64,000 bases of DNA from a virus (IMGVR_UViG_3300009183_000045), one strand, 5' to 3'; positions 2,339 to 58,825 are shown, numbered from the stretch's first letter. Translations and numbers: made by a program. The notes: generated from the letters alone by a model not told the origin.

Positions 2339-2367
2339 TTGGATTTCCCGGTTTTACACCTTATTAT
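2339..2367 (+). promoter_or_regulatory. Early/middle-type promoter with TTCCC box (leaderless)
   Basis: TTGGAT-TTCCCGGTTTTACACCT(17)-TATTAT-6 nt-ATG(2374). Confidence 0.7.
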
Positions 2368-2373
2368 AGGCAT

Positions 2374-2925
2374 ATGAATTTAAGATTTGCTCTTTGTGGA
2401 ACTCACGGAACAGGTAAAACCACAGTTTTAAAGGATATATCAAATGATCTCCTAGACGTCTACAACATTAAACCCATTTTTAACACTAGCAATGCACGCA
2501 AATTGTTCAAATTAGGAGAAGAATTAAATGATAAAGGTGGAAATTTTGTACAATATGTAGTACAAGCCAGCCACGTTAGTCGTTTTGCAGAAGAAAATTG
2601 GTTCGCTGACCGATGTGTTGTTGATGGATGGGCTTATATGAATGCTTCGGATCAAAAGGGAATAATTGATCCTCAGTGTAGGGATGCTGTGTCCAGTATG
2701 ATGAGGTTTTTCACTCCTTTATACACACAGATATTCTATGTTCCTATTGAATTTGAAATGGAAAGTGACGTAGTACGAAAAGATGACATAGAATATCAGA
2801 AGGAAATAGATAGTTATATGTCCAACACTCTAACAAGTTATAATAATGTCACCGTACTCAAAGGAAGTCGTGAAGAACGTAAGAATATTGTGTTAAAATA
2901 TATCCATGAACTTATTCATTCTTGA
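2374..2925 (+). CDS. P-loop nucleotide kinase/ATPase (AAA_28/NadR-like)
   Basis: FALCGTHGTGKTT Walker A, DRCVVD, and IFYVPIEF..E.D.VR. Start refined to ATG 2374 because the track's 2323 start lies inside the terminator. Confidence 0.75.
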   Translation: MNLRFALCGTHGTGKTTVLKDISNDLLDVYNIKPIFNTSNARKLFKLGEELNDKGGNFVQYVVQASHVSRFAEENWFADRCVVDGWAYMNASDQKGIIDPQCRDAVSSMMRFFTPLYTQIFYVPIEFEMESDVVRKDDIEYQKEIDSYMSNTLTSYNNVTVLKGSREERKNIVLKYIHELIHS

Positions 2926-3439
2926 TTTAGATCCTAAAAAAGCGGCCAATTACTACCAAGACCTTCATATAAATAAAATTATCATTGAAGGAACACAGCT
3001 ATTAGCTGCTGCATATCCTCTTGATAGACTGTCACAAGATGATTGTCCTCGTACCCAAAAAGGCACACCACGTAAACATGGACATTACAATCATCCTATG
3101 ACTAAATGGGTAAGGACAAATATGACAAATTTTGTATGGACTCTAAATCATTTAGATGGTTTGTATCAAGAAAGATTGTATAGATTTGAAAAAGAACATT
3201 TTAGCAAAGACTTTATAGATTGGGTGTGGAATAATCCTCCAGAGTTGCCTCACGATGAAATGACAGAACATCCACAATGTTTTGCGGTATCTTTTCCTCA
3301 GTGTATTGTGCCTGGCGATCCAGTCCAAGGATATCAAAATTATTATAATGCTGCCAAAAGAGAATTTAAATTTGGTAATAAAATTGTAAAGGCAAATTGG
3401 ACTAAAAGAGAAGTGCCTTACTTCTTCAAGGATAAATAA
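2906..3439 (+). CDS. Pyrimidine-dimer DNA glycosylase/endonuclease V-like protein
   Basis: MNLFILDLDP..AA.YYQDLHINKIIIEGTQLL, H.NHP.TKWVR and PQC...GYQNYY match the DenV-like (Pyr_excise) phage family pattern. Confidence 0.75.
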   Translation: MNLFILDLDPKKAANYYQDLHINKIIIEGTQLLAAAYPLDRLSQDDCPRTQKGTPRKHGHYNHPMTKWVRTNMTNFVWTLNHLDGLYQERLYRFEKEHFSKDFIDWVWNNPPELPHDEMTEHPQCFAVSFPQCIVPGDPVQGYQNYYNAAKREFKFGNKIVKANWTKREVPYFFKDK

Positions 3440-3443
3440 AAAT

Positions 3444-3911
3444 ATGAATTTTGTGCAATTTTACTCAGAAGCGGTTAATAAATTTAACACAGAATGGCAG
3501 GTTACTAGAGAAGAAGCAAAGAAAATTAAAGATGTAGATACTAAGATATCTCATGTCAAGAAATTTTTAATAGACAATCCCTCTTCTGCTAATTTTGGAA
3601 GAGTGGCAAACTGGACCCGAATGACAAAATTGGGTTACAAGAATAGTTCCATAGAAAGTGCTCAAAAATTTGAACATTTTCTTGATTATTTAGAATTGAA
3701 TAAACTCAAATTTGTGGAAGAAGATAAGGATATAGATTTAAATGATTTACCAATGGACAAATTTGTGGCTGTCTATAAAGATTTAGTTCATAGAAAGAAT
3801 GATTTTCAACACGGAGGAAAAAGACCGGTTTCTATGAGCCAATATCTATCTCAAATGCAAAGTGTTGCTAAAAAAAGAGGCATCCCTCTACCTCCTGATC
3901 CTCAAGACTAA
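3444..3911 (+). CDS. Hypothetical protein
   Basis: 155-aa ORF with TAAATA (3433-3438) 5 nt before its ATG. Confidence 0.7.
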   Translation: MNFVQFYSEAVNKFNTEWQVTREEAKKIKDVDTKISHVKKFLIDNPSSANFGRVANWTRMTKLGYKNSSIESAQKFEHFLDYLELNKLKFVEEDKDIDLNDLPMDKFVAVYKDLVHRKNDFQHGGKRPVSMSQYLSQMQSVAKKRGIPLPPDPQD

Positions 3912-4375
3912 CAGCCTTCTAGTATATCTAATTGATTCCTTTTAGATTTTCCATCTACAAAGCGATTAATTACTTCATCCCTCGTAGCAATAAGGATGTT
4001 ATTGGCTGCTGGTAATTTGGAAACAATTTCCTTTTTACCGGCTATGTCCATTTTCTTTAATTCAACTGCCACCGTGGCTTGTTTTTGCTGTAGATTAATA
4101 TTATTTAAAGAATCTATAGCTTTAGTGGTAGCACCCATTAAAGAAGCCATCGCAGATATTTCTTTAGGATCTGCTCCCATGGATATGTTATTAGACAATG
4201 TGGCTATAGCATCCAATCCCGCTTGTATAATCTCTGCAGTTTTTTGATATACATAGGTATTTACATTGTTATCTGTTATTATTTCCGGTTCTGGCCGCAC
4301 AGCCATTAGCATAGCAGGAGCTGATGTACTTTTTAGCTCACTGATGATATTATCTATTTCTGAATTGGATTCCAT
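3908..4375 (-). CDS. Possible terminase small subunit (gp16-like), helical protein
   Basis: Pattern YVY..TAEIIQAGLDAI...ADPKEISAMASLMGATTKAIDSL...NNILIATRDEV resembles the gp16 helical architecture. No adjacent gp17 in the window. Confidence 0.45.
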   Translation of the reverse strand: MESNSEIDNIISELKSTSAPAMLMAVRPEPEIITDNNVNTYVYQKTAEIIQAGLDAIATLSNNISMGADPKEISAMASLMGATTKAIDSLNNINLQQKQATVAVELKKMDIAGKKEIVSKLPAANNILIATRDEVINRFVDGKSKRNQLDILEGC

Positions 4376-4376
4376 G

Positions 4377-4405
4377 TTGCTTTTAAATTGAAGGTACTAT
4401 ATTAT
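4377..4405 (+). promoter_or_regulatory. Sigma70-like promoter
   Basis: TTGCTT-17 nt-TATTAT, 8 nt before ATG 4414. Confidence 0.5.
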
Positions 4406-4413
4406 TTAGCTAT

Positions 4414-4575
4414 ATGACTACAAAAATAACGATAGAAAATTACGGAACATTTTTTATAGACCAAAACAAAGTTGGAGAATTGATTAAATGGCTACAAGCA
4501 AATTATATAAATCCTTCTATTGGTGAAGTTGTCAATCTTCAAGCAATCAATGGCAATCAACTTATTAATGGCTAA
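4414..4575 (+). CDS. Small hypothetical protein (53 aa), not in the ORF track
   Basis: MTTKITIENYGTFFIDQNKVGELIKWLQANYINPSIGEVVNLQAINGNQLING*. It fills the gap between the promoter and dUTPase, and its stop lies 1 nt before ATG 4577. Confidence 0.6.
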   Translation: MTTKITIENYGTFFIDQNKVGELIKWLQANYINPSIGEVVNLQAINGNQLING

Positions 4576-4576
4576 T

Positions 4577-5029
4577 ATGGAACAACCAAACATTCTCAAA
4601 GCTCCTAAGATTGCCTTTAAAAAGTCCCACCCAGACGCCCAACTTCCTTTCAGGAAGAGAACCAATGATACTGGATATGATTTATTTTCAATTAGTGACG
4701 TATTAATTCCGGCAAAAGGAGATGCAGAAGTTCCAACCGGAATTACCGTAGCAAAGGTTCCATTCGGGGTGTGGTTCCTGATCTTGCCTCGATCCGGAAT
4801 GGGATTCCAGCACGGCATTCAACCTCATCTAGGAGTTATTGATAATCCTTATAGAGGAGACCTGTCTGTAAAGTTGTATAATTTTTCAGATAAAGACTAC
4901 CAGATATCTAAAGGAGATCGCATTGCACAGATAGCATACTTTCCTCTTCTGGCTCTAGAGCCAGAATGGTCAGATGAAGTAGAAAACACGGACCGGGGTG
5001 ATAAGGGGTTTGGCAATTCGGGAAAATAA
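4577..5029 (+). CDS. dut: dUTPase (trimeric)
   Basis: Motifs DTGYDL, VPTGI, ILPRSG, GVIDNPYRGD, GDRIAQ and RGDKGFGNSG. It reads on the + strand (atg gaa caa cca aac...) although the track labels it '-'. Alternative start at 4568. Confidence 0.95.
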   Translation: MEQPNILKAPKIAFKKSHPDAQLPFRKRTNDTGYDLFSISDVLIPAKGDAEVPTGITVAKVPFGVWFLILPRSGMGFQHGIQPHLGVIDNPYRGDLSVKLYNFSDKDYQISKGDRIAQIAYFPLLALEPEWSDEVENTDRGDKGFGNSGK

Positions 5030-5030
5030 T

Positions 5031-12021: not shown

Positions 12022-12030
12022 CTTGTTTGC

Positions 12031-12036
12031 TAAATA
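12031..12036 (+). promoter_or_regulatory. Late promoter TAAATA, 6 nt before ATG
   Basis: TAAATA-ttagtc-ATG(12043). Confidence 0.6.
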
Positions 12037-12042
12037 TTAGTC

Positions 12043-15000
12043 ATGTCTAACAGCATTCAAGCTTTTAATATACAGACCATAGGCATCTGGCCTAATGAAA
12101 CGTATCAAATAAATCCGTTGGATCAATACATAGATCCAAATGCTGGGTTTTTACCCGCGGAAAATATGTTTCGGTATTTAAACAATTCCTTGAATGAAAC
12201 AGACTCTTTTCACACTGTAAATTATTCTGGCATAACTTACAACTTTTCTCCAATAGTTAGTCAATATGCAATAGACACCACTCCAAACTCTAAGTTTGTA
12301 TGGGATTTAACCTCTCACCGCAAAAATTATAATTTTGGACCACAATTTAATTATTTCTATGCTCTGTCCAATCCAGGAACTGATGCATACTATCGCAAAT
12401 ATTATGCATATCTCTTATATCCAGCTCGTTTATTTCTAAAACCCCTTTCTTTGCAGAAAAATGCTTCTTCTTGGACTCTCACCACAAGCACGGTTCTAGT
12501 ATCTCCTCAAACCTATTTCTTTTCGGGGTCTAGTCATGAATTTCCTTCATATCTTCAGCACACCCAACACATAAACACCAAACCCACTTTTTACCCTCTC
12601 CCAATAGACACTGCAAATAATTTTATATTTGAATTATCTGCCTGTAGGATGATGAAAGATGTTCCGGTGGTTTCTTTTACAGGAGATTTTAATCCCTACA
12701 GTGCTAGTAGATCTTTGGATCGGATAGGTGGGTGTATTAGACCAGATTCTACATTTATTTCTTATAATGTTGACTACACTCAACCCACTGGAAGCACTTC
12801 TTCATTGGGTCAAGTGTTGCCCGACACGGACCCCTTAATATCTCACGCATTTAAAACTTCTTATATTCTCAACCAATCAGAATTATCCTCTGGTAAATTA
12901 CAAAAATTTCAACTGCTTCAAAATAGGCCCCAAGAAGGCACTAAAAATTTAGGAGATTCCTCTTATTGCATACTCAGTGCAGTTTTTAATTTGTCGTCTA
13001 CAAATTTACAATATTTTAATTTACAGTTTATTAAGGAAAATTTTACTCATGTAAACGCGGTTACTGGCCGCGCCGGAAGCATAATAGGTGCTTCTTATAT
13101 AATAGACAGTGATAAATTTCTATTTTCAAATGAATCATGTCAAAGCACGTTTACTTCTTTTCAAATTAACGGCAGTGTTAAAACCCTAGGAATACCTGTA
13201 AATTACCAGAATCTGACAAGCAGTTCTACCTGGATAACAAAATATCCTCCACATTATTATAGTTATAAAACCTCTTTATATTCTCCTAGTAATGGTTACA
13301 ATAGCAAAGCAGATACCTGTAATCTAACATTCTTTCTACAAACATCTGTTTTAAATTTAACAACTTCCAATGCTTTACTTTCTTCTTTTATAGGATCAGA
13401 TTATAATGCATTGACTTACAATCTCCCGGATAACAATTTAAATGAATATATTAAATTTGAATTATTATCAGATAATTCATTGTTTAGAAACAACAATTCT
13501 TTAAGTGCTATTAATTTTTATTATGGTCCTTCATTAAACGTGCCTTATAATATAGAAATTTCTCCGTGGGTTCCGGTATCTTCTGCTTGTAAGCTGTTTA
13601 TAGATTATCCGGGCACCCCTTATGGTGAAACATTTTTAACAATTCGTTCCACTTTAAGCTCACCCGCTGGATATTTGGCATCTAAAGAAGCCGTAAACAT
13701 CTTTTTTGCACCAAATCAAACTCAATCTGCAGTTGGTAGTCCTATTTTTCTAGATTTAATAGATCAGCCCGTAGATGCATTCGACGTTACCAGTGCCTTT
13801 CTAACGGCAGCACCACAATGGCCTACTAAAAATTTAATAGGTTCTTTTATTTCCTGGGATTTCTTTCCCAAAACAATAGGAGCTCAACTTTATTCTATAG
13901 ATTCTTTAGGCAATCCTTTATTAGCACTTTCTGCTAATGAAAAAGTTGCTTTTTCTGATCTTACCCAAAATGTTAGATTGTCTGGTACAGGATTTTCGAC
14001 AGTGGTGATATATCTATCTTCCCAAAAATATAATCAAACCACTTCCCTCACTTCCAACTCTGCTTTATATGACCCGTTTGTTTTAAACAAATTTATTATA
14101 GGCCCCAATTCTGTTTTATCTAACGTTAACCGCACTCGAACAATAAGCTTAACAGCATTGCTGCCTTACGGGAATCAATTGTATAGCATACCTTACAACA
14201 CCCCAGTCTCTTGGACGTGGGATTATACCACAAACACTGCCCCTTCTAGAGGACCCATCAATGCATATTACGGACCTAACAAGACTCCATATGTGTATGC
14301 AACTGAAATGAGTGTTAATGTCTTAAGTTCTATTTATTTAGAAATAACTCCCACAGACAACGATTCAATTCCAGTTCTCAACCATGTTAGGGCTCACCTG
14401 AGCAGCAAAGTCAGAGTACCTGCCATATACTCAACCTATGAATTCGTTGTTGATGATTTTCCTGCTCGCTCTGTATTAAATTCAGATTTTCGTATAGGAT
14501 ATACAAGCTTTCAAAGCCCATCAGGAACTATTTTAGATACTGGTTTAGATCAATATGTTTTAACAAGGCCACAAGACGGAACAAATATATTATCCTTGTC
14601 TAGTTACGCTAATTCACACATCAGTCCCTCTACTACCTATGTATGGACCATTTCTGATAATGCAAACACCTTGTCTTCTGTTACGGTTCCGTATTCAAAT
14701 CATTTTATTAATTATAACATTAAAACTGCTGCAACTGCAACCTACATTTCATTAAGTGCAGTCAAAGCCGTAGTTGACGCCTGGGGCAATGTCAATATAA
14801 CTGATAATTCAGAATTTTTATCATCCCCGGAACATAGTGTAGAGACTAGTGTTTACATATATACACCCACTTCTGCAGAATTTTATAAGCCATTAGAATT
14901 TGTTATTTATCCCGAGTATGCTTGGTTGGGTGGTCGTCAATTAACATTATTAACTCCTTCTAATTACACCCTTTCCAAGGCACCTTCAGCATATTCTCAT

Positions 15001-27129: not shown

Positions 27130-28899
27130 ATGTCTTTCTTATTTGCCCAGCGCAGGAGTTTTTCGAATTCTTTGTCCGTCAAAGGCCTCGGAACATTTAA
27201 TAGAATTGCAGCGACCGACGGCTGTTCTTTGGCTCTTAAAAGTGATGGCACATTAATTGGATGGGGAATTGGCCCTCACCTTATCATTCCTTCTAGTGCT
27301 AATTCAGGGGTGGTGGACATTAAAGTAAGCCAGCAAGGTTGTTTGGCTCTTAAAAGTGATGGTTCAGTGATAGGATGGGGCACTAATTGGTATGGTGAAT
27401 TCACCATTCCTATTGGAGTTAGTTCTAAAGTGGTGAGTATTTCCCTGGGCGGCCATCATTCTCTAGCTCTTAAAAGTGATGGCACTGTAGTTGGCTGGGG
27501 GGATAATAGTTACGGCCAAATTACTATTCCTTCTAGTGCCACTTCTGGTGTGGTGGCTATTGCTTGTGGGTATTACCATTCTCTAGCTCTTAAAAGTGAT
27601 GGATCTGTAATTGCCTGGGGATTTAATAATTTTGGTCAAACCACTATTCCTATTAGTGCTAATTCTAATGTGGTTGCTATTGCTGCAGGTGGCTTCCATT
27701 CTCTAGCTCTTAAAAGTAATGGCACTGTAGTTGGCTGGGGGAGCTATGTTTATGGAGAGCTCGCCATTACAGATTCTAATGTGGTGGCTATTGCTGCTAG
27801 TGGGAATGTTTCCTTGGCTCTTAAAAGTGATGGCTCTGTAATTAGTGCCGGACAATGGGCGTTCTACAACGCCAATACCAATCAAATGTATTATGTCGGG
27901 GTCACCAATCCCACTAGTGTTAGTTCTGGCGTGGTTACTATTGATACCTCTAGTCGAAGTTGTTTAGCCATTAAAAGTGATGGCTCTATAATTGGTTGGG
28001 GGGATAATAGTGTCGGCCAAATTACTATTTCTACTACAACCCTTTCTAGAGCAGCCTGTGCAAAAAGAATTGCTGCTGGCCGCACCCATTCTCTAGCTCT
28101 TAAAAGTGATGGATCTGTAATTGCCTGGGGATTGAATAATTTTGGTCAAACCACTATTCCTTCTAGTGCCACTTCTGGTGTGGTGGCTATTGCTGGCGGC
28201 TGGCGCCATTCTCTAGCTCTTAAAAGTGACGGCTCTGTAATTGCCTGGGGAGATAATTTTTATGACCAAACTACTATTCCTTCTAGTGCCACCTCTGGTG
28301 TGGTGGCTATTGATTGTGGGGATTACCATTCTCTAGCTCTTAAAAGTGACGGCTCTGTAATTGCCTGGGGATATGGTGTTGACGGTCAAACCACCATTCC
28401 ATCCAGTGCCACTTCTGGTGTGGTGGCTATTGCTTGTGCCCAATATTATTCTCTAGCCCTTAAAAGTGACGGCTCTGTAATCTCCTGGGGGCGTAATAGT
28501 GTCGGTCAAGCCCCCATTCCATCCAGTGCTGCTTCTGGTGTGGTGGCTATTGCTTGTGGCGTCGAGTATTCCATGGCCCTTAAAAGTGACGGCTCTGTGA
28601 TTGGTTGGGGAATCAATATTTACGGGACGTCACCCGTTATTCCATCCAGCGCGCTTTCTGGTGTAGTGGCTATTGCTTGTGGTGGCAACCATTATCTAGC
28701 ACTTAAAAGTGACGGCTCTGTAATTGCCTGGGGATATAATAATTATGGTCAAACCACCATTCCATCCAGCGCACTTTCTGGTGTAGTGGCTATTGCTGGC
28801 GGCAGCGAGCATTCCATGGCCCTTAAAAGTGACGGCTCTGTAATTGCCTGGGGAAATAATAGTAGTGGTCAAACCACTGTTCCAGCATCTTTAACTTAA
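27130..28899 (+). CDS. RCC1-repeat protein (14 repeats, probable double 7-bladed propeller)
   Basis: 14 copies of HSLALKSDGSVIAWG.N..GQTTIPSSATSGVVAIA.G. Confidence 0.9.
   Translation: MSFLFAQRRSFSNSLSVKGLGTFNRIAATDGCSLALKSDGTLIGWGIGPHLIIPSSANSGVVDIKVSQQGCLALKSDGSVIGWGTNWYGEFTIPIGVSSKVVSISLGGHHSLALKSDGTVVGWGDNSYGQITIPSSATSGVVAIACGYYHSLALKSDGSVIAWGFNNFGQTTIPISANSNVVAIAAGGFHSLALKSNGTVVGWGSYVYGELAITDSNVVAIAASGNVSLALKSDGSVISAGQWAFYNANTNQMYYVGVTNPTSVSSGVVTIDTSSRSCLAIKSDGSIIGWGDNSVGQITISTTTLSRAACAKRIAAGRTHSLALKSDGSVIAWGLNNFGQTTIPSSATSGVVAIAGGWRHSLALKSDGSVIAWGDNFYDQTTIPSSATSGVVAIDCGDYHSLALKSDGSVIAWGYGVDGQTTIPSSATSGVVAIACAQYYSLALKSDGSVISWGRNSVGQAPIPSSAASGVVAIACGVEYSMALKSDGSVIGWGINIYGTSPVIPSSALSGVVAIACGGNHYLALKSDGSVIAWGYNNYGQTTIPSSALSGVVAIAGGSEHSMALKSDGSVIAWGNNSSGQTTVPASLT
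27210..28890 (+). repeat. About 120-bp in-frame coding tandem repeats (RCC1 blades)
   Basis: The core ctagctcttaaaagtga(t/c)gg.tctgtaattgcctgggg recurs with near identity; for example the copies at about 27577 and 28087 differ at one base over about 75 bp. Confidence 0.9.
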
Positions 28900-28935
28900 C
28901 AGAAGAGTTATACTATCATAGTTAACCATTCTTGA

Positions 28936-28941
28936 TAAATA
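28936..28941 (+). promoter_or_regulatory. Late promoter TAAATA, 6 nt before ATG
   Basis: TAAATA-gtatag-ATG(28948). Confidence 0.6.
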
Positions 28942-28947
28942 GTATAG

Positions 28948-43488: not shown

Positions 43489-43501
43489 ATTATAATTATA
43501 T

Positions 43502-46500
43502 TTAGATCCAAGCTATCGGTTTTTGATCATCTCCCGTTAAGATGTCTTCTAGATCATCTACAATGAAATTTCCTTCGGTGTCTATATTGAAAGTTATGTA
43601 TATTGGCACACTACTAACCATACCCATTAAGTTACTAACTTGACACACATAGACCCCCGAGGTTTCTGGCACAGATTTAAATATTTTATAATCAGTAAAG
43701 GCGCCACCAACTATGGGTGTATTATTATGATACCATTGATAACTAAAGGGTTGTTCGCCAGATGCTATTATAGATAAGGCACAGAAAGATCCTACATTAA
43801 TACTAAGAGCAGAAGCAGTCTGAAATATAATAGTAGGAGGCAACTTTTTAATATGTATCACTTCTGTTTGTAATTGTTTATACAAGCCGTAATCATTACC
43901 AAATATGTCACATCTCCATTGAACCATGGTACCTTTATTGGCTAATAATTTATTAACATGAGTTCCATATACATCGGATAAAAGTTCTTTTCTGTAATTA
44001 GAATCCGAAGTTTTATCTTTCCATATTACATTATTATCCTCATTAAATTTCCAAAATTGAAAATCATCTTGCTGACGCGCCAAGCCATGAGTGTTATAAC
44101 CTAATATTTCATAATCAGATTGATATGGAGTAAATTTTTGGTTTTCCTTGGTTCCTAATATAACACCAGCCTTGGCACCAGATCCATAAGGCTCCATTAT
44201 CCATTTGTTATCTATTCCATCTAATACAACGGGAGATAATTGATCCTTTTTAGTCAATCCTCTATTGCGAGATCCATACTTTTTGGGATCCAAAAACACC
44301 GCTTCACTATTAGATAAACTTATAGCCGATAAATTAGTTTGATTAACAGAATAACTATACCCTCTTCCTCTGTAGGTAGATACTCCCAAATTTTCAGGTA
44401 ACATATACCCACCTACTTCATTTTCTGTTACGGCTAAATTAGGGAAAGAAACCGTGGCTGCGGTCGGAAAAAATCTATTATCCAAATTTGCATAAGGTTC
44501 CGCAGGTTCTATAAACACACCCGAATTGAAAATTATATAATTGGATATGCATCTGTTTTTTAGATACAAATTTTCAGAATAAGAAAAAGAATTTACAGCA
44601 TAATAATGATATCTTGCTGGTTTATATTCAGAATATCCTTCTAATAAAATATCACTTAGTTCTGTAGAGCCTTGTATAATACAATCTAGTTTATTAGACC
44701 GTAAAATAGATTCTAAATTAGAATACTTCTTGTCAAATATAATTTTATTCCATTGAACAGTATTAATAGTAACATCAAAATTTAATGGTTGATCCCACCC
44801 TAAATCCAAGGCTCCAATTCTATTGTATTGAACATAATCCCCAGTGTTTAAAGACATGACAGAAATGTCTGGCTGATGGAGAGGCACATAATCATATACA
44901 AATTTAATTTGCCCAGCATAAACCACTGGGTTTGTAGGAACCTTTGCCCAAAAAGGTTTTGCCCCAAAAGAAGGGCCCACATTTAGGTTTGAAAAATTAC
45001 TCATTTCATAATCCCAACCATCCAATTTAATATTGATAGTAAATGATACACCCGGTTGATAAAATTCCACACCAGCAAAGGTGTCAATGTAGGAAGTGCC
45101 GCCTTGATGTTCGTATATTAAATAATCATTAGGTCTTAATATAATATCAGATACCAATGTAGTTTCTATCCAATTACCACTTTGATTTTTGATAGCCTTG
45201 CGCCACACCGGATAGAAGGGCACACACCCATTTATTCTTGTAGATATGTAACTTATAAAAGAATCATAATTTCCGTCCCCGGATACAAGATATTTATAAA
45301 GATTAAAATGGGTTTGATCTGAAGTAGCTATTTGTTCCATCAAGCTATTAGTTAGAGATAATTCTCCCATACTAATAGCTTGAATTTCTATACCTTTATT
45401 TTTATATTGTTTTGCTAAACTTACAATATCTGCGGAATCTTCTGTGGTAGATACCCCATCACTAATAATAACAATTTTTTGTATAGCACCTTTTTGAGGC
45501 GAATTTAAAGCCCCACTCAATTTTGATTGATTCGCCAGTGTAACATTAAGACTACTGCATAAAGTTTTTAAATCTAAAAGAGTTTTGTCTAATCCAGGAG
45601 ATGTTGGATTTAAGATATTGTCACACAAACGCAAAGCAGCTGAAAAGTTAGTTTGATAATCTGGAAATTGAGTGGGACAATTTAAAGCTTCTATTTGAAG
45701 ATTTAGTTCATACTCTTCATTGGTAAGATAGTTTACCATTACACTATTAGCAGCAAATCCTACTATAGCAACCTGCACAGATTTTTGTCTATCATAACAA
45801 ACATTTGAACCATCATTTGTGCAGGCATTAATAAGCTTAGAACATATAGTGTTTACAGCCTTTTTAACTTTATCAAAATCAAAACTTTGAGATCTGCTAT
45901 AGTCTAAGGCTATAACAATGTCATACTTTACATCATTACCATCACACATGATGGCATTTAATTTTGGATATATGTAATTGCAAACAAAATAAGGTGAAGA
46001 TTTGGCAGATATAGTATTACCAGCACCACTGGAACTATTAGTTCTAAGACCAGATCTGCAATAGGTATAACGTCGACCGGTTTTCAAAATCATTCTATCA
46101 CCTACTTCAGACAATGTAGTATCGCTGGTTTTCCATCTACCAGTACCAAACCCAATGTTTCCATCTCCTTCAGTTTGATCTAATTGAAAGAAGGAGAATT
46201 GTGGGCTATCCTTTATATTCAAGCCTCTCGTGTCTACCCAAGAACCTATAGTAAATTTATCTCCAAGACCAAAAGGATCTGCAAACAGATAGTCTGCTGT
46301 GCCGTTATAATCTGTGACCTTATTCCCTTTATGACCAATCGGTGAATAGTGTACGGCTTTACAAGAACATTGAGTCCAATAATTTTTATTAGATAAAGAA
46401 ACCGGGTTAACAAAGTCTTGGTCTTTGTAATATTCATGTGGATATGTTTTTCCATACACACAATTCTTTTCATGGTTAATATATTTAAACACCTCATCAG

Positions 46501-48409: not shown

Positions 48410-48415
48410 TGGTAA

Positions 48416-48423
48416 TATTTATA
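48416..48423 (-). promoter_or_regulatory. Late promoter TATAAATA, 6 nt before ATG
   Basis: Minus strand TATAAATA-ttacca-ATG(48409). Confidence 0.75.
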
Positions 48424-49965
48424 TTATAAAACTAAAAGCCTTCGAGAATTACCATTAGAATCTTGACAGGTTATATATCCACTAGCGGATGTTCCGTTAG
48501 AGAGAGATAAAGGTTGTGTTGTATATGCACCGAACCTTACATTTGTTCCTAAATCTATATACTTTGTATCTGTCCCAGGGTATAATTTTAATCCAACCTG
48601 GTCAGAACTGTTTTCTGCCCCATTTACAGAAATAAGACTATGACCGTTAGAGTCAGCGCCAGTTACCCTAACATGACTCACCGCAGAATTTGCATTAGAA
48701 ATTTCAAATTGAGTAAAACTATTATAGGTGTTAAACAATATAGAATTAGAATCTGGAGTTTTGATGTATAATTTTCCGACACTAGAAGAAACAGCCGCGT
48801 TATCATTCCAGGTGGTTAAGCTGGTGTATATGCTAGAGGTTAAATTGGAGCTACCATTTATAACCCCGTACGTATTAAACTCCATACCGTATCTTCCGTT
48901 ACTCAAAGCAACTGCATTATAGCATTCTATTTCTCCAGCTGTCTGAGCATAAAAACCAGATCTTGTATTTAAACTAGAAGTAGTATTTTTAGCATCTATT
49001 TGTGAATTGGAATAAGAATTATAACCATTGGTGGTATTATAAGTTGCTTGGGAATACTTAGCATTTATTTGAGAATGGTTTTCAGCCAAATAACCAGCTA
49101 AATTGTGATTTGAATTGGCATGGTTGGCCGATATATGAGAACGGTTACTTGCATAAAAACCATTTCCATATGCACAATTTTTAGTCTCTACATAGTCTGC
49201 TAAAATAACTGAACCTCTATCTGCCATTACTCCGTGTCTGCAATTATTAATAATAACATTGGAACCTAATTGTATAAAAGCTCCCCCATCAGCCTTAATA
49301 GCTGCATAGGCATTGGCGGCGTCGCCCACGCCGGTTATTGTTACACCGTTTATTAACCCAAAAGAATTCCCGTTGGTACAGGTTATTAAGTCAAATCCAG
49401 GAATTAAAGGATTGTTCATTAATAAATTAACATTAACTGGAGTGTTTACATCTCCTATAAGTTGTATATTTTGACCATATGGATGATTTAAATTAAGAGT
49501 TTGGTTTAAATTCCAAGTGCCTGGACCTAATTTTATTTGCACAGTTCCTTCAATGTGCCACTTTTTAATTTTATTAAAAATGTTTAATATAGAACGATCC
49601 GAGTCAACGTCGTTGACGGGATTTATTACTACAGTTGAACCATAAGGAACAAAAAGTCTTTCTCCTAAAGCTGCCAAAGAAGCAGTGGCTAAATCTGTAT
49701 AATCATTTGTCGTATAAAATTGCTCAAGTTTGTCGTTAACTGAAACGTCAGGTTTTGTATCAGTTCCTTCAAACCTAACCAATCTGGCAGCCAAAGACAA
49801 ATCATCTAAAAGATCATCCAAAGAATTGGCTAAATTCTGGGTACTAATTTTTACCTCTACATTAGTTGTACCCGGTCTATAACCCACTATATAATCCGTG
49901 TCATTTATAGGATCGACTAAAGTCCCTCCTTTAGTGGTAAAATCTGCAAAAGTTTTGTTAGCCAT
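48424..49965 (-). CDS. Tail spike-like protein with right-handed beta-helix (pectin lyase-like)
   Basis: VQIKLGPGTWNL...LNHPYGQNIQLIG followed by about 22-aa repeats of GF.A...S.I.A. Confidence 0.7.
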   Translation of the reverse strand: MANKTFADFTTKGGTLVDPINDTDYIVGYRPGTTNVEVKISTQNLANSLDDLLDDLSLAARLVRFEGTDTKPDVSVNDKLEQFYTTNDYTDLATASLAALGERLFVPYGSTVVINPVNDVDSDRSILNIFNKIKKWHIEGTVQIKLGPGTWNLNQTLNLNHPYGQNIQLIGDVNTPVNVNLLMNNPLIPGFDLITCTNGNSFGLINGVTITGVGDAANAYAAIKADGGAFIQLGSNVIINNCRHGVMADRGSVILADYVETKNCAYGNGFYASNRSHISANHANSNHNLAGYLAENHSQINAKYSQATYNTTNGYNSYSNSQIDAKNTTSSLNTRSGFYAQTAGEIECYNAVALSNGRYGMEFNTYGVINGSSNLTSSIYTSLTTWNDNAAVSSSVGKLYIKTPDSNSILFNTYNSFTQFEISNANSAVSHVRVTGADSNGHSLISVNGAENSSDQVGLKLYPGTDTKYIDLGTNVRFGAYTTQPLSLSNGTSASGYITCQDSNGNSRRLLVL

Positions 49966-51043: not shown

Positions 51044-51072
51044 TGGCAGTTCCCCCCATTCCCTTCTATTAT
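51044..51072 (+). promoter_or_regulatory. TTCCC-box promoter (leaderless)
   Basis: TGGCAG-TTCCCCCCATTCCCTTC(17)-TATTAT-6 nt-ATG(51079). Confidence 0.65.
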
Positions 51073-51078
51073 TAAAAC

Positions 51079-51921
51079 ATGATTAACACATTGACATACG
51101 AAGAAGCAGTTCAGAAATGCCCCGCTATTGCAGCCACCGAGCCGTCTAGCAAGGCTTCAAAAAAGTACAACTTCATCTCCACTGGAGAAATTGTTCGCAA
51201 GGCCATGGATAATGATTGGGTTATTCGAGACACTAAAGCAGGACGAGGTCTCCACGGAGTTCATACGGTAAATTTGGTTCACAAATCTCAAACAGTTGTG
51301 GACCATCAAGAAGGATTTCCTCAGATTAGCCTGATTAATAGTCATAACCTTTCTCGCAGGTTTTCCTTGTCCCTTGGATTCTTTCGCTTGGTCTGCTCTA
51401 ACGGACTAATTGCTCCCGTTGGTTTGTGTCAATCTATTCGCCCCACACTCCACCGTCAAGGTGCTTTTGGCGACGGTAATGATGTCTTGGCTCTCCTCAA
51501 TGAATCTTTTGGTCAATTTGACAACATTGTAAAACAGACCAAGACCATGAAGGAACGCCGGCTTTCCGGGGAAGAAAGGACCGTACTGGCTCGTTATGCC
51601 TACTATATCCGCTTTCGGTATCGCATGATGCAACCCAAGAAAGTAGATATGGGAGAACTTCTCAAACCTCGACGGACTGCAGATGCAGGCACAGATCTAT
51701 GGACCACTTTCAATGTGATTCAAGAAAATCTCGTCCGTGGAGGAACCCGAATTGGTAATGGTATCACCCAATTTCAGGATGAACTCCGATTCAATCAAGA
51801 ACTTTGGACCGGAGTTGATAAAGCCGTGAATCACTGTGGAACAGATCTAGAAGTAGTTCTCAAGAATCTCTTTCCCAAGAAAGAAAGGGAAAAGAAAACC
51901 TTGATCATTGGGGATAATTAA
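51079..51921 (+). CDS. DUF932/DUF945 family protein
   Basis: PQISLINSHN...FSLSLGFFRLVCSNGL and DLWTTFNVIQENLVRGG. Confidence 0.85.
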   Translation: MINTLTYEEAVQKCPAIAATEPSSKASKKYNFISTGEIVRKAMDNDWVIRDTKAGRGLHGVHTVNLVHKSQTVVDHQEGFPQISLINSHNLSRRFSLSLGFFRLVCSNGLIAPVGLCQSIRPTLHRQGAFGDGNDVLALLNESFGQFDNIVKQTKTMKERRLSGEERTVLARYAYYIRFRYRMMQPKKVDMGELLKPRRTADAGTDLWTTFNVIQENLVRGGTRIGNGITQFQDELRFNQELWTGVDKAVNHCGTDLEVVLKNLFPKKEREKKTLIIGDN

Positions 51922-53584: not shown

Positions 53585-53592
53585 TTTTTACA

Positions 53593-53598
53593 TAAATA
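53593..53598 (+). promoter_or_regulatory. Late promoter TAAATA, 6 nt before ATG
   Basis: TAAATA-ttatat-ATG(53605), directly after the terminator. Confidence 0.65.
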
Positions 53599-53604
53599 TT
53601 ATAT

Positions 53605-54510
53605 ATGGCTATTCATAATGACACCGCTCCTATTAAAATGTCTCAAATTGCTGCTGAATTTAGCCAGACATTTTCTAATATGCATTTAAAATCATATTAC
53701 AGAGGAGGTGGTATTGTTGGGACCAATAACACCAATGTGCCAGTGTCTCCTAATCCTATAGGTGTAAAAAGTTTCTACGGAGCAGCAGCTGCTTTTACAT
53801 ACTCAGACATAATAGCCAGTGATACATACTATTATGATTTATACAGTGTTGCGGTTGCGGCTGGGTGGAATAAAGTAATTCCTTTAAAGTTCTCAGCAAC
53901 AATAAATAACGGTGTTGTAGTGGGTAGTGGCCCGGCGACAATACCTTGGTACTGGCTCAAGCAGGCATTTTATGTCCAGGGAACATTTCCCGCCGGTAGT
54001 GAAATAACTATATATAACAATGGTTATATAGTGGGCCAGGGCGCTTGTGGCGGCGGCGGCGGCCAATGGCCTTGGGAAAACAGCGGCGCAGGTCAAGGTG
54101 CTGGATGGCCTGGTTATAACGGGTGGGATGCTCTTTATGTTGAAACTCCAGTCATTATTTATAATTACGGGACTATTGGCGGCGGCGGCGGCGGCGGAGC
54201 CGGTGGAAAAAGTGCCGACAGTGGTCGCGAGTTATGGAACCGAGCCGGCTCCGGCGGCGGCGGTGCTGGAGCAGCTCCCTGTAATAATTATGTGTCGACC
54301 CCGGGAACTTTAACAACTGGAGGTGCAGGTTCTGATCCCATTGGAACTGACCCAGCTCGGGGCACGCGTGGGGGTAATGGTGGAAACCTTGGCTATGCCG
54401 GTGAAAGTATGTTTGGCATCGCTGGTGGCTCAGCTGGTAAATGTGTAATAGGAAATCAATATATTACTTGGGCAGTCACAGGTACTCGCCTCGGGCTAAT
54501 TACAAATTAA
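53605..54510 (+). CDS. Glycine-rich virion/fibre protein (paralog of 52157 N-terminus and 34124 C-terminus)
   Basis: IKMSQIAAEF....HLKSYYRGG; IYNNGYIVGQGACGG; IYNYGTIGGGGGGGAGG. Confidence 0.75.
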   Translation: MAIHNDTAPIKMSQIAAEFSQTFSNMHLKSYYRGGGIVGTNNTNVPVSPNPIGVKSFYGAAAAFTYSDIIASDTYYYDLYSVAVAAGWNKVIPLKFSATINNGVVVGSGPATIPWYWLKQAFYVQGTFPAGSEITIYNNGYIVGQGACGGGGGQWPWENSGAGQGAGWPGYNGWDALYVETPVIIYNYGTIGGGGGGGAGGKSADSGRELWNRAGSGGGGAGAAPCNNYVSTPGTLTTGGAGSDPIGTDPARGTRGGNGGNLGYAGESMFGIAGGSAGKCVIGNQYITWAVTGTRLGLITN

Positions 54511-56193: not shown

Positions 56194-56502
56194 ATGTCCG
56201 AATTTGAAGACTTCGCTAATGACGCCCTTGAAAATTTAAGAAGGGAGAGGAATAAATTCATGGCTCCAAAAGTTACAGAAACTTATATTCAGCCGGATGA
56301 AAAGGATTCAGATCCTACACCACCCTCTTTGGCTTACCTGGAACAATGTTGTCCAGAATCAGCTAATAGAAAAAAAGAAGATCCCAAAGATCGAAAAAAA
56401 AAATTACTAGATGATTTTATAATCACTATAGTTAATCAGTATCCTGAAAGTATTAGATCTCAAATTTTAGAGGAAGTAAAAAAATCTACTTCCGCGCCTT
56501 GA
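56194..56502 (+). CDS. Hypothetical protein
   Basis: Start refined to ATG 56194 (MSEFEDF), after TATAAATT. Confidence 0.55.
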   Translation: MSEFEDFANDALENLRRERNKFMAPKVTETYIQPDEKDSDPTPPSLAYLEQCCPESANRKKEDPKDRKKKLLDDFIITIVNQYPESIRSQILEEVKKSTSAP

Positions 56503-56818
56503 CTTTGAGCCTCTCTTTAATTTCATGCACGTCTACCTCTGGCTCCGGAAAGAATCCCAACACCGGACTTTTTCCTAACATGGTTCCTACAAGAAGGACT
56601 TCTTCCATAGGCTTCAATTTCCACACACCTGTCTTCCTATCAAACTCGGCATAATCTGCTGCGATGAGACGGGTCTTCCAGGCGGATTCTTTGTCTTCTA
56701 GTCCGTGTGTATAGCCCTTGATGTATCCACTAACTTGAGACTGTACTCCGATCAATACAGCCAAGGAGATACCAGCGACACCTTTGATATAAGGCAAACT
56801 CTTTTTAAATTCAATCAT
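56486..56818 (-). CDS. Hypothetical membrane-anchored protein
   Basis: N-terminal hydrophobic segment YIKGVAGISLAVLIGV; has its own TTCCC-box promoter. Confidence 0.7.
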   Translation of the reverse strand: MIEFKKSLPYIKGVAGISLAVLIGVQSQVSGYIKGYTHGLEDKESAWKTRLIAADYAEFDRKTGVWKLKPMEEVLLVGTMLGKSPVLGFFPEPEVDVHEIKERLKVKARK

Positions 56819-56824
56819 GTTTAT

Positions 56825-56853
56825 ATTCTAGTAGAGGTTTGTGGGAACGACCC
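56825..56853 (-). promoter_or_regulatory. TTCCC-box promoter (leaderless)
   Basis: Minus strand GGGTCG-TTCCCACAAACCTCTAC(17)-TAGAAT-6 nt-ATG(56818). Confidence 0.65.
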
Positions 56854-56856
56854 GAT

Positions 56857-57768
56857 TTACTTTGACACTGCGGTCCAAACGGTCGACGCACTCCGACCGT
56901 TCTTAACAACGAGCCCGGCATTGACTAGATCTTTCATTACCTTCTGGACCTTGGATACATCCCCGATGACCTCTGCAGCCTCCGCGGAGTTAATACTGCC
57001 TTGCTTTTTAATATGAGCCAGCACAGAATCCACAGCCACCTGGGATTTAGACTTGGTAGGTTTTTCATCATCCGAAATTCCTACAGATTCAAAAGAAAAT
57101 CCACTCTCGGTCATGGGAAACGCGGTTGTACCCGTACGACCGAAACGATTCTTGGTCACTTCAATTTCACGCACGGTTTCATCTTCTTCTGAAACTCGAA
57201 GCATAATGTTAGAATCAACACTATGAGGTAAAAGCGTCGAACCTTTATACTTTCCCTGCTTGGTAATATGGAGAATAATTCCTACCACTACTTCGAGCTC
57301 CTTAGCACGAGCGGTGATGTAATTGGAAAGGTATTCTTCTTTCCGTTTACCCTCCAATCCAGAACGGGTCTCCAAAGAGGGAAGAGAATCGAGAACGATC
57401 ATCTTATACCCACCTTCTTTTACTGCATCAAAGATATCTTCAACCACCGTAACATTTGCGATCGTAATATTCTTAAGATTCAAACGCTTGGCTGCAAACG
57501 CCACCTGATAGATAGATTCTTCGCCAGAGACATAAGCGGTCTTCTTACCAGACTTTTCAAGCAACTCCAGGGTCTGGAGAAGCAAGGTGGTCTTACCTGC
57601 TCCCGGCTCACCTGCTAGGGTAAAGGTCTGACCAGGAAGAAATCCTTCACCTCCAAGAGCGAAATCTAAATCTTCAATTCCGGTCTTAAAACGGCGATAG
57701 AAGATTTCTGGAATTTCTACCTCACTTACTTTCTGGAACCCACTTGTTGCTTTCATAATTTTCATCAT
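56857..57768 (-). CDS. radA: RadA/Sms-like RecA-family ATPase with C-terminal wHTH-like domain
   Basis: TGIEDLDFALGG, GEPGAGKTT, YVSGEES, IVLDSL, LHITKQG and the diagnostic KNRFG motif. Start refined to 57768. Confidence 0.85.
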   Translation of the reverse strand: MMKIMKATSGFQKVSEVEIPEIFYRRFKTGIEDLDFALGGEGFLPGQTFTLAGEPGAGKTTLLLQTLELLEKSGKKTAYVSGEESIYQVAFAAKRLNLKNITIANVTVVEDIFDAVKEGGYKMIVLDSLPSLETRSGLEGKRKEEYLSNYITARAKELEVVVGIILHITKQGKYKGSTLLPHSVDSNIMLRVSEEDETVREIEVTKNRFGRTGTTAFPMTESGFSFESVGISDDEKPTKSKSQVAVDSVLAHIKKQGSINSAEAAEVIGDVSKVQKVMKDLVNAGLVVKNGRSASTVWTAVSK

Positions 57769-57774
57769 GTAATA

Positions 57775-57803
57775 ATAATAGAGGATCTTAGAGGGAAGCT
57801 CCC
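57775..57803 (-). promoter_or_regulatory. TTCCC-box promoter for the radA-like gene (leaderless)
   Basis: Minus strand GGGAGC-TTCCCTCTAAGATCCTC(17)-TATTAT-6 nt-ATG(57768). Confidence 0.65.
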
Positions 57804-57859
57804 GCGATTTCCTCACGATGCTCATCTTGAGCTTTGTGATTGTTGGAGTTCTTCTTCAT
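57788..57859 (-). CDS. Unannotated 23-aa small ORF MKKNSNNHKAQDEHREEIAGASL
   Basis: ATG at 57859 and TAA at 57788-57790, preceded by its own TTCCC-box promoter. Confidence 0.4.
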   Translation of the reverse strand: MKKNSNNHKAQDEHREEIAGASL

Positions 57860-57868
57860 CCTGTAATA

Positions 57869-57897
57869 ATCTTAGGAGAGGTTGTGGGGAACTTCAA
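57869..57897 (-). promoter_or_regulatory. TTCCC-box promoter upstream of the 23-aa ORF
   Basis: Minus strand TTGAAG-TTCCCCACAACCTCTCC(17)-TAAGAT-9 nt-ATG; the spacer is very similar to the promoter at 56825-56853. Confidence 0.6.
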
Positions 57898-57911
57898 GAT
57901 CTTTTTTAGAG

Positions 57912-57940
57912 TTGACTTCCCTTCAAATAGGATCTATCTT
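57912..57940 (+). promoter_or_regulatory. Sigma70-like/TTCCC-box promoter (leaderless)
   Basis: TTGACT-17-TATCTT-6 nt-ATG(57947), with TTCCC at 57917-57921. Confidence 0.6.
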
Positions 57941-57946
57941 AAAATT

Positions 57947-58159
57947 ATGCATTGGAAACACCGGGAAATTACCTTAGAAAGACTAAGACAAACTGTAGAG
58001 AGAAGCCAGCAAGATCTGTCCAAACTTTTGTTAGAGGGAATTCTGGCAAAGCAACTAGATTCAGTGGAATATTACAAAGCACAAAGTCTCCTCACGGCAC
58101 GCCTAAACATGTCTAAAAAAGACTTAGAAGCTTGGTTAGACATTCCCCGTTCCTTCTGA
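57947..58159 (+). CDS. Small hypothetical protein
   Basis: Start refined to ATG 57947 (MHWKHRE) from the promoter spacing. Confidence 0.55.
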   Translation: MHWKHREITLERLRQTVERSQQDLSKLLLEGILAKQLDSVEYYKAQSLLTARLNMSKKDLEAWLDIPRSF

Positions 58160-58205
58160 TAATATATAAACATGATTGAATCCTTTATTTGCATTAAGTA
58201 TTAAT

Positions 58206-58328
58206 ATGGGAAAGAAACACAATTCCGCTGATGATGGAATCCCTGCTGAAGCCTTCCTTTTTTTTCTTTCCGTTCTCTTAATACAAATAATTATTTTTAC
58301 TGGAATAATGATCAGGGTAAGTCTTTAG
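58206..58328 (+). CDS. Small single-pass membrane protein (40 aa), not in the ORF track
   Basis: MGKKHNSADDGIPAEAFLFFLSVLLIQIIIFTGIMIRVSL*; TAAGTA 5 nt before the ATG. Confidence 0.5.
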   Translation: MGKKHNSADDGIPAEAFLFFLSVLLIQIIIFTGIMIRVSL

Positions 58329-58342
58329 GATAAATATATTAT

Positions 58343-58732
58343 ATGCGCACAAAAGATCACATCGGATTAGAAAAAGTTTATTCATTGATAATGGAATCCA
58401 GAGCCGCTGGAGCCGAAAGTCAAGTTGCTGGAGAAAGTGCTAAAGCATTGGCTATAGAAAAGACTTTAATCAAATCCATTACAGAAGATTTGAATACAAC
58501 TGCTGCTCATCTTCAGAATATTCAACCGTTAATTGGAACCTTTGAAGAAGGAGCCTTAGGAGAAGATTTTCAATCTTTGATGACCGCCATTCAGTCCGTT
58601 CAAGCGGCAGCAGAGTCTTTGCAGGGAAGAATGCCCGAAGAAGAAGAATCTGTTGAAGGAGAAGGCGAAGGCGGCGAAGTTCCTTCGGATTTCCCTGAAA
58701 ACGGCGGAGAAGGTGAAATGCCTCCTGTTTAA
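58343..58732 (+). CDS. Acidic hypothetical protein (late; possibly head-associated)
   Basis: TAAATA-6 nt-ATG, DHIGLEKVYSLIMES N-terminus, Glu/Gly-rich tail. Confidence 0.7.
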   Translation: MRTKDHIGLEKVYSLIMESRAAGAESQVAGESAKALAIEKTLIKSITEDLNTTAAHLQNIQPLIGTFEEGALGEDFQSLMTAIQSVQAAAESLQGRMPEEEESVEGEGEGGEVPSDFPENGGEGEMPPV

Positions 58733-58758
58733 TTTCCTATAGAAGCAGTAAAATAATC

Positions 58759-58789
58759 AAAAAAGCCACGGCAAATCCGTGGCTTTTTT
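58759..58789 (+). terminator. Rho-independent terminator
   Basis: aaaaaagccacgg-caaat-ccgtggctttttt. Confidence 0.9.
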
Positions 58790-58790
58790 G

Positions 58791-58819
58791 TTGCACTTCC
58801 GCCAATTTAAATGTATTAT
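58791..58819 (+). promoter_or_regulatory. TTCC-box promoter for the RNA ligase operon (leaderless)
   Basis: TTGCAC-TTCCGCCAATTTAAATG(17)-TATTAT-6 nt-ATG(58826). Confidence 0.7.
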
Positions 58820-58825
58820 AGAGTT

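Follow-up and report, generated by a model that had tools for sequence, protein, structure and literature searches.

A conserved TTCC(CC) box marks start-codon-adjacent promoters in a clade of uncultured freshwater T4-like phages

The locus and its relatives

The 64-kb stretch of DNA analysed here (IMGVR_UViG_3300009183_000045, hereafter the window; 37% G+C) derives from a distant, uncultured T4-like myovirus from a lake, and carries eight copies of a promoter cassette in which a TTCC(CC) box sits between a degenerate -35 element and a -10 element placed almost against a start codon. The gene for the major capsid protein gp23 lies at 793–2283 (Pfam Gp23, 3e-88), and the other genes include a clamp loader, a gp6-like baseplate wedge and many tail-fibre genes; no tRNAs were found in the window. 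Downstream of the cassettes lie genes for an AAA_28 NTPase, a DUF932 protein, a RecA/KaiC-like ATPase and an RNA ligase (the first gene of an operon), together with small open reading frames (ORFs), all of them non-structural, as had been stated in an earlier interpretation made from this DNA alone (hereafter the sequence-only reading).

None of 50,697 phage records matched the window at the DNA level; the best match to its gp23 in the phage-record collection, among cyanomyophages, reached only ~33% identity, and a tail-fibre protein of the window had no match by tblastn. IMG/VR, in turn, contains many uncultured relatives, a large family whose gp23 is 61–80% identical to that of the window, and near-identical DNA came from freshwater and lake metagenomes only, with DNA runs but no RNA run among the matches. 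The window itself covers 64 kb of its phage, and the genome-wide picture was taken from three relatives: G001 (complete, 227 kb; gp23 77% identical to the window's), G005 (a 131-kb fragment; 78%) and G003 (a complete sister-clade phage of 212 kb; 69%).

Promoter cassettes in the window

Seven TTCC sites had been listed in the sequence-only reading, at 2339(+), 51044(+), 56853(-), 57803(-), 57897(-), 57912(+) and 58791(+), six of them with an ATG exactly 6 nt past the -10; all seven are present on those strands, the 6-nt count holds, and the two spacers described as near copies are genuinely so. An eighth site, missed at that time, lies at 58137–58174(+) and has the form TAGACA-TTCCCC-N11-TAATAT-N6-ATG, so that the gap is exactly 6 nt in seven of eight sites and 9 nt at 57897(-). 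Seven of the eight fall within 51–59 kb. Every site in the window, as well as every site in G001, has a TAnnAT-type -10 element (consensus TAAGAT or TATTAT). Scores below are from a position weight matrix (PWM) trained on the G001 sites alone, with the ATG left out.

The promoter of the AAA_28 NTPase gene (2339–2376, plus strand) has the -35 hexamer TTGGAT at 2339–2344, TTCCC at 2345–2349, the -10 element TATTAT at 2362–2367 and its ATG at 2374. It begins 1–2 nt past the T-run of an intrinsic terminator that follows gp23 on the same strand (2302–2337, or 2302–2332 as otherwise delimited; 13-bp stem and T-run, -18.5 kcal/mol). This is the weakest member by the G001 matrix (<8 bits), and is still conserved in its orthologues: both G005 and G001 keep the order terminator, TT(G/T)GAT, TTCCC, -10 and ATG. 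At the DUF932 gene the promoter (51044–51081, plus strand; 27.4 bits) consists of TGGCAG, TTCCCC at 51050–51055, TATTAT at 51067–51072 and an ATG at 51079, and the spacers of its four orthologues have diverged around a retained GTTG(C/A)nn-TTCCCC-N11-TAnnAT-N6-ATG.

On the minus strand, a 110-aa ORF (56486–56818), which has a 48% identical homologue in G001, is preceded by a promoter at 56816–56853 (20.0 bits) with GGGTCG at 56853–56848, TTCCCA at 56847–56842, TAGAAT at 56830–56825 and an ATG at 56818. The RecA/KaiC-like ATPase gene (56857–57768) has its promoter at 57766–57803 on the same strand (29.5 bits), with GGGAGC at 57803–57798, TTCCCT at 57797–57792, TATTAT at 57780–57775 and the pair ATGATG from 57768; orthologues of this promoter occur in L081 and G001. 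The third minus-strand site (57857–57897; 37.0 bits) heads a 23-aa ORF and is the closest fit to the family consensus, with TTGAAG at 57897–57892, TTCCCC at 57891–57886 and TAAGAT at 57874–57869, followed by TATTACAGG and an ATG at 57859. Here the 9-nt gap reflects AGG in place of the first ATG of the ATGATG pair found in its relatives; should +1 be the A that follows TAC, the mRNA would have a 3-nt leader.

That 23-aa ORF overlaps the next TTCC promoter, a divergent partner on the plus strand (57912–57949) with TTGAC, TTCCC at 57917–57921, a 13-nt spacer remainder (N13), TATCTT at 57935–57940 and an ATG at 57947, which opens a 70-aa ORF (57947–58159). The two promoters thus stand back to back across 57857–57949 with their boxes 26 nt apart on opposite strands, and may be tandem promoters or serve micro-genes; at the place of the 23-aa ORF, G001 has a 28-aa ORF without obvious similarity. 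The eighth site, on the plus strand (15.1 bits), has TTCCCC at 58143–58148, TAATAT at 58160–58165 and an ATG at 58172, and its 5'-terminal ORF has just 10 codons.

The last site (58791–58828, plus strand; 16.2 bits) has TTGCAC, TTCCG at 58797–58801, TATTAT at 58814–58819 and an ATG at 58826. A bidirectional terminator hairpin (58758–58790; 14-bp stem with A-run and T-run, -20.3 kcal/mol) ends 1 nt before its -35, and G001 and G005 keep the arrangement terminator-GTTGnn-TTCC-...-10-N6-ATG at the orthologous promoter. Both terminators that the sequence-only reading placed against promoters are genuine. The genes behind this promoter form a putative RNA-repair operon (58826–62004). Its RNA ligase has a PHA02142 OB-fold as N-domain, and the other products are a polynucleotide-kinase-like P-loop protein, a 182-aa protein matching primase-like PHROGs, and an AAA ATPase; the last of these has a canonical promoter of its own, TTGATT-N17-TACAAT-N6-ATG, at 60764–60801.

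Between the 56818 and 58172 cassettes, which precede unrelated genes, ATAAACATGATTGAAT is identical (56816–56830 and 58166–58187), and the identity reaches into the coding region. Most cassettes of G001 start ATGATGAA(A/G), and cassette identity also extends into coding sequence at the DUF932 starts of G001 and G005. The cassette unit may include the first two to three codons, as initial transcribed or translated sequence.

Enrichment and anatomy of the cassette

A bare regular expression for the motif is weakly enriched in the window (13 observed against 8.3 expected). Of 53 TAnnWT-N6-ATG sites, six have TTCC at offset -17 and one at -18, and at each of 38 other offsets it occurs zero times or once; the composite of TTCC, -10, N6 and ATG was observed 6 times where 0.22 were expected, and none of 300 Markov simulations gave more than 3. 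Because the bare expression is barely enriched and the geometry strongly so, we take the register of TTCC to the -10 as the significant feature, and the claim that TTCC is fixed 17 nt before the -10 holds when set against background. The PWM scores agree: six window sites reached between 37 and 15.1 bits, against a null with a mean maximum of 11.7 and a highest value of 17.5 bits. A scan with a generic sigma70 consensus did not rise above shuffles (41 vs 38.5; 24 vs 24.8) and is uninformative in such AT-rich DNA.

The whole cassette spans ~38 bp: a -35 element (T/G)(T/G)Gnnn, a 17-bp spacer opening with TTCC(CC), the -10 element TAnnAT, 6 nt usually ending in AC, and the ATG. Its consensus in G001 is cCTTGAgG-TTCCCC-(a)caac.tC..c-TAAGAT-atatAC-ATGATGAAa, in which the TTCC box carries 1.0–1.8 bits per position, above both the -10 and the -35, and the remaining spacer 0–0.6 bits. 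Across 74 distinct sites, the -35 triplet is TTG in 35, GGG in 11 and GTG in 10; the last three bases of the hexamer are non-consensus, and -35 and -10 are exactly 17 bp apart, or 18 in the N13 variants. The -35 hexamers, described in the sequence-only reading as varying widely, are not free: the third-position G is near invariant (~61 of 74 sites) and TTG is the commonest triplet. The box also occurs behind perfect TTGACA and TTGACC hexamers. The consensus lacks a TG extended -10, and the quality of the box does not rise where that of the -35 falls (rho 0.09, p 0.43).

Neither a conserved hairpin inside the cassette nor a palindrome or repeat in the box was found. The idea that the box forms the loop or stem of a hairpin, in the manner of promoter-early stem-loops (PeSLs), was rejected: a few sites resemble one, but columns do not covary, and the mean folding energy is -2.7 kcal/mol against -2.1 for shuffled sequence. 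Upstream of the cassette is a G/C-rich consensus (..gtaagcCTTGAGG) taken up by the end of the preceding ORF, and 34 of 50 G001 sites have a stop triplet at most 12 nt upstream of the -35. A hairpin with a T-run precedes 4 of these 50, and was called at three of the eight window sites, two of which are the genuine terminators described above. Read from its layout, the unit is a sigma70-type promoter with a degenerate -35, a box at spacer positions 1–6 and a good -10; register, PWM scores and orthologous promoters together bear out the proposal that these promoters form a genuine and conserved class in which the TTCC(C) box is fixed.

Conservation across relatives

In G001, a strict form of the pattern gave 35 matches, 33 of them on one strand, against none for the reversed control, and a relaxed scan gave 83 TTCC[CG]-spaced -10 matches (70 on one strand), with an ATG exactly 6 nt past the -10 in 36. 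G001 has ~50 copies of the cassette, the promoter-like ones packed at 47–110 kb ahead of ORFs of 50–300 aa, forming an array with one promoter per small gene and nearly all on one strand; TTCC promoters also precede a gp41-like helicase gene and an HNH gene.

At the DUF932, RNA ligase, RecA/KaiC-like and AAA_28 orthologues, TTG, TTCC, -10 and ATG stay in register while the spacers diverge, and the box is kept at orthologous promoters though the proteins are just 58–62% identical and the spacers scrambled. The terminator stems ahead of the AAA_28 and RNA-ligase promoters differ by compensatory substitutions in relatives (G005 and G001 for the AAA_28 site). G005 has a shorter form, TTGAnn-TTCC(n). 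In G003 the TTCC box was not found; its small-gene array has ordinary cassettes with an A-tract, a CTTGnCA-type -35, N16–17, TAnAcT, 9–10 nt and an ATG. From its presence in G001 and G005 (gp23 77–78% identical to the window's) and its lack in G003 (69%), we take the box to be specific to the clade of the window, G001 and G005. In IMG/VR a strict form of the cassette was confined to G001 and a fragment of that phage; among ~185,000 bacterial species genomes it gave 4 single matches and does not recur in any one of them.

The G003 cassette was missed by a census of repeated 9-mers and appeared on direct reading of the small-gene array (L117; G003:C1:50300-55500). It consists of a gaaaaaaag A-tract, CTTG(A/T/C)CA or CTTCCCA at -35, a 16–17-bp spacer, TA(C/T)A(C/G)T, and ..cgtt before an ATG at 9–10 nt; TTCCC(A/T) can here fill the -35 hexamer itself.

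Gene content and order differ between the window and G001 at cassette borders in a gross comparison of synteny. The RecA/KaiC-like gene adjoins the RNA-ligase block in the window and lies ~14 kb away from it in G001 (91 kb and 104–110 kb), and the interval from DUF932 to orf129, which in the window takes in hsp20 and tail-fibre-like genes, is 6.4 kb there and ~2.9 kb in G001.

Start-codon geometry

The distance from -10 to ATG in G001 has a sharp peak at 6 nt, with 53 sites against ~10 in one count and 61 against ~17 at neighbouring distances in another. A profile of Shine-Dalgarno 4-mers was flat, without a peak in any of these phages. The start codons agree with the N-termini of orthologues and with the start of a Pfam domain, and the cassettes have CA at -1/+1. 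At the 2339 and 58791 sites and their orthologues, 36–37 nt separate the terminator T-run from the conserved ATG, so any promoter there must start within a few nucleotides of that ATG; the space would fit a minimal promoter alone. The variants with a 9-nt gap, five of which are in G001 (TAC-A(A/C)G-ATG), read TAC-A(A/C/G)G-ATG overall, which is the usual ATGATG pair with its first ATG mutated, and this predicts a 3-nt leader for them. The earlier proposal that +1 falls on the A of the ATG agrees with where cassette geometry would place it, and mRNAs from the TTCC cassettes probably begin at the AUG, leaderless.

In the window, many structural genes have a late-type motif, TAAATA (TAAATT once), 6 nt upstream of their ATG, examples being the ATGs at 12043, 28948, 43502(-), 48424(-), 53605 and 58343, within 12025–12045, 28930–28950, 43490–43514(-), the region 48410–48430(-), 53587–53607 and 58325–58345. 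G001, G003 and G005 have the same TAAATA peak 5–6 nt before start codons, and at this distance late mRNAs, too, would probably be leaderless, except that of gp23, whose gene has an A-rich leader of 19 nt.

Promoter classes and their candidate readers

The 61 -10-N6-ATG starts of G001 represent an excess of ~44; 34 carry TTCC and just seven have TTG without TTCC. By this count, 34 starts against an excess of ~44, most non-late promoters are of the TTCC type. Canonical TTGAnn-N17-TAnnAT promoters that lack the box are a minority, found in the window at 60764–60801 and in G001 at 89224, 94900 and 214667. The sequence-only reading had proposed a separate middle regulon of the MotA kind, and this part of it is not supported: the TTCC class is the majority of non-late promoters, it heads a one-per-gene array of small ORFs as early promoters do in T4-type phages, and TTG or its G is kept at 17 bp. 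Nor did the phage sigma factor it envisaged as a possible reader of the motif emerge from the relatives, whose one sigma-like protein is gp55-like (phrog_234, 2e-27), which fits the TAAATA late promoters. Pfam domains of MotA and AsiA (MotA_activ, AsiA) had no match in the records of five relatives, of which four are ≥99% complete, in a search that was silent on its controls too.

For a view of possible host promoters, metagenome-assembled genomes (MAGs) of Verrucomicrobiota were picked by one auxiliary gene of the relatives, DUF1501, whose closest matches were to Chthoniobacteraceae (63%) and Opitutae (54–55%) MAGs of that phylum; hsp20 gave 28–31% matches to mixed phyla. The composite of TTCC, -10 and ATG had no excess over the reversed control in four of these MAGs and a fifth, probably mis-binned, assembly, and matches to -35, -10 and ATG were almost absent from the Verrucomicrobiota MAGs. 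The matched sequences look much more G+C-rich than the 37% of the phage, so these MAGs are probably not the host.

Two further observations concern the wider family. On L139 (CAYOWH010000027.1, 28 kb, binned as 'uncultured Bacteriovoracaceae'), a DUF1501 protein is 77% identical to the phage copy in G001, much nearer to it than any bacterial homologue is, and the contig is probably a phage contig of the same family mis-binned into a bacterial MAG. In the window, a tail-associated gene of RCC1 repeats ('regulator of chromosome condensation'-like; 27130–28899, 589 aa) carries the 9-mer TTAAAAGTG 13 times with a period of ~120 nt across 27236–28823, its repeats homogenised at the DNA level.

Discussion

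On balance we think it probable that the TTCC cassettes are this phage's standard non-late, early-type promoters. Host RNA polymerase with its primary sigma factor would read the -10 element, plus TTG where it is present, and transcription would begin at the A of the ATG, giving leaderless mRNA. The TTCC(CC) box, at ~-29 to -24, is under selection and would most likely act as a positive upstream element that supplements a poor -35. A positive role is favoured by the lack of TTG at half of the sites, by a consensus without a TG extended -10, and by the box being conserved better than any other part. Each gene would have a promoter of its own because a 5'-terminal AUG would be the translation signal, no Shine-Dalgarno sequence having been seen.

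Several points weigh against this interpretation. We infer timing and strength as well as the start site, which is taken from geometry; ORFs of 10 and 23 aa are the sole product of two window cassettes; and some G001 cassettes are recent duplicates with identical spacers, so that part of the similarity among cassettes is shared descent. At 39 of 74 distinct sites the -35 lacks TTG, which together with a consensus that lacks a TG extended -10 is weak for an unaided sigma70 holoenzyme by the rules of E. coli, and leaves room for an activator. To our knowledge, moreover, bases -29 to -24 have no known sequence-specific contact with bacterial RNA polymerase.

As to the box itself, that it is read directly by the host transcription machinery seems plausible, just short of probable; a phage activator as its reader is doubtful, an operator for early shut-off decidedly less likely, and a box without any transcriptional role very improbable. 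A tentative, broader possibility is that GnnnTTCC(CC) is the docking site of an early or virion-delivered phage factor, or of a lineage-specific part of the host machinery, that replaces the contact between the -35 and sigma region 4. If true, this would be a functional analogue of the MotA/AsiA appropriation, independently evolved in a T4-like lineage with neither gene and coupled to obligatory leaderless translation.

The alternative that fares best, which we nonetheless consider unlikely, is an activator-dependent class resembling the middle promoters of T4, in which a phage or virion protein binds GnnnTTCCCC (~-33 to -24), replaces recognition of the -35 and drives a delayed regulon after a few canonical promoters. 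In its favour, the box is more informative than the -35 or the -10, those 39 sites have GGG, GTG or other triplets in place of TTG, the consensus lacks a TG extended -10, and the minority of canonical promoters without TTCC could serve immediate-early genes. Confinement of the box to one clade fits co-evolution with a phage factor, and the failure of the strict cassette to recur among ~185,000 bacterial species genomes counts in the same direction. The box is, however, unlike the MotA box in both sequence and position; the relatives yielded no MotA or AsiA domain (with the silent controls noted above) and gp55 as their sole sigma factor. Further points against it are that TTCC promoters form the majority non-late class and head small-ORF arrays of the sort that are early in T4-type phages, that boxes also stand behind perfect TTGACA or TTGACC, and that box quality does not offset that of the -35.

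The box could instead be an operator, a reading that we regard as quite improbable: host polymerase would use the promoters at once, and an early or middle phage protein would later bind TTCC(CC) and shut off the early class, in place of shut-off of the AsiA type. Sites between -35 and -10 are typical of repressors, one short asymmetric site is common to ~50 promoters of one phage, and AsiA was not detected in the search whose controls were silent. Yet the box has none of the palindromes or repeats that dimeric repressors usually need, and neither covariation nor a hairpin; no candidate protein was identified, and the recognition of sites without TTG is left unexplained.

It is highly unlikely that the box lacks a transcriptional role and owes its persistence to concerted evolution among recombining cassettes, or to use as a recombination signal of the kind speculated for the polyG/polyC tracts of PeSLs. 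PeSL cassettes do recombine, and their GGGG...CCCC tracts have been proposed as protein targets (PMC2839356); several TTCC cassettes are identical duplicates, and at cassette borders the window and G001 carry different genes, the displaced RecA/KaiC-like module included. Against this, within a single genome the adjoining spacer bases are conserved much less than the box, which also survives at orthologous promoters in spite of diverged proteins and spacers and is fixed in register with the -10. Barely credible, finally, is the suggestion that these are not promoters and that longer transcripts use TAnnAT-N6-ATG as an AT-rich signal for starting translation: phages without Shine-Dalgarno signals do need another start signal for internal cistrons, but TTG and TTCC stand upstream at fixed, promoter-type spacing, two cassettes and their orthologues lie directly behind strong terminators so that a promoter must fall in the 36–37 nt before the ATG, and two cassettes are back to back and divergent.

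Almost all gene expression in this phage appears to do without ribosome-binding sites, TTCC early-type and TAAATA late promoters alike being set against start codons. Such expression would constrain the identity of the host and explain the one-promoter-per-gene layout. The cassette provides a precise, testable promoter grammar for a large group of uncultured freshwater T4-like phages, and the motif can serve to locate gene starts and early-gene regions on metagenomic contigs from the clade. Identifying the reader of the box would bring to light a phage transcription factor, or else a contact between polymerase and DNA, that is new.

Comparison with known systems

Literature searches on TTCCCC promoters and on leaderless early or late promoters of T4-like phages did not bring up the motif. 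What is new here, judged by comparison of related genomes, is a TTCC(CC) box that is a selected, clade-specific and dominant form of non-late promoter.

Leaderless design as such has precedents. In Deinococcus-Thermus, -10 elements adjoin ORFs and the transcripts are leaderless (PMC12340547), and the Thermus phage phiYS40 is summarised as having leaderless middle and late mRNAs (Sevostyanova 2007, summarised in PMC3594737). The likeness lies in a -10 ~6–7 nt before the start codon, in the dispensability of a ribosome-binding site and in the use of leaderless design by a phage for whole gene classes; the phages considered here differ in being T4-like lake phages of 37% G+C, in a start site that we place by geometry and in a TTCC box for which no counterpart was found in that material.

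With the MotA/AsiA middle promoters of T4, the cassettes share the layout only, a sigma70 -10 with a box near -30 that is better conserved than the -35 hexamer. The box is TTCCCC as opposed to (a/t)(a/t)(a/t)TGCTT(t/c)A and is placed nearer the -10, about half of the TTCC sites retain TTG at -35, the TTCC class makes up the majority of non-late promoters, and motA and asiA were not detected in the relatives by the Pfam search with its silent controls.

The early promoters of T4 have a phage-specific extended sigma70 consensus with a good -35 region and A-rich upstream sequence, and give leadered mRNAs with Shine-Dalgarno sequences. Like them, the TTCC cassettes have a sigma70-type -10/-35 frame, occur in many copies, are conserved at positions beyond the hexamers and head small genes of the early kind; unlike them, they have a degenerate -35, extra conservation at spacer positions 1–6 and predicted leaderless mRNAs.

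PeSLs are mobile regulatory cassettes of the T4-type phages RB49/phi1, T4/PST and KVP40/nt-1 (PMC2839356, PMC4122927). In both systems a near-uniform sigma70-type early promoter is repeated once per small accessory gene where a T4-like genome is plastic, relatives differ in the genes found at the units, and C/G tracts lie within the conserved unit. In contrast to PeSLs, the TTCC cassettes mostly lack a stem-loop (a hairpin precedes 4 of 50 in G001, and the eight window sites have two genuine terminators and one further hairpin-plus-T-run call), lack an AT-rich upstream element (the sister phage G003 has A-tracts), and have neither leader nor ribosome-binding site, the -10 standing 6 nt from the ATG; the TTCC(CC) box inside the spacer likewise sets the present cassettes apart. 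The closest known elements are thus the early promoters of T4-type phages together with the PeSL cassettes.

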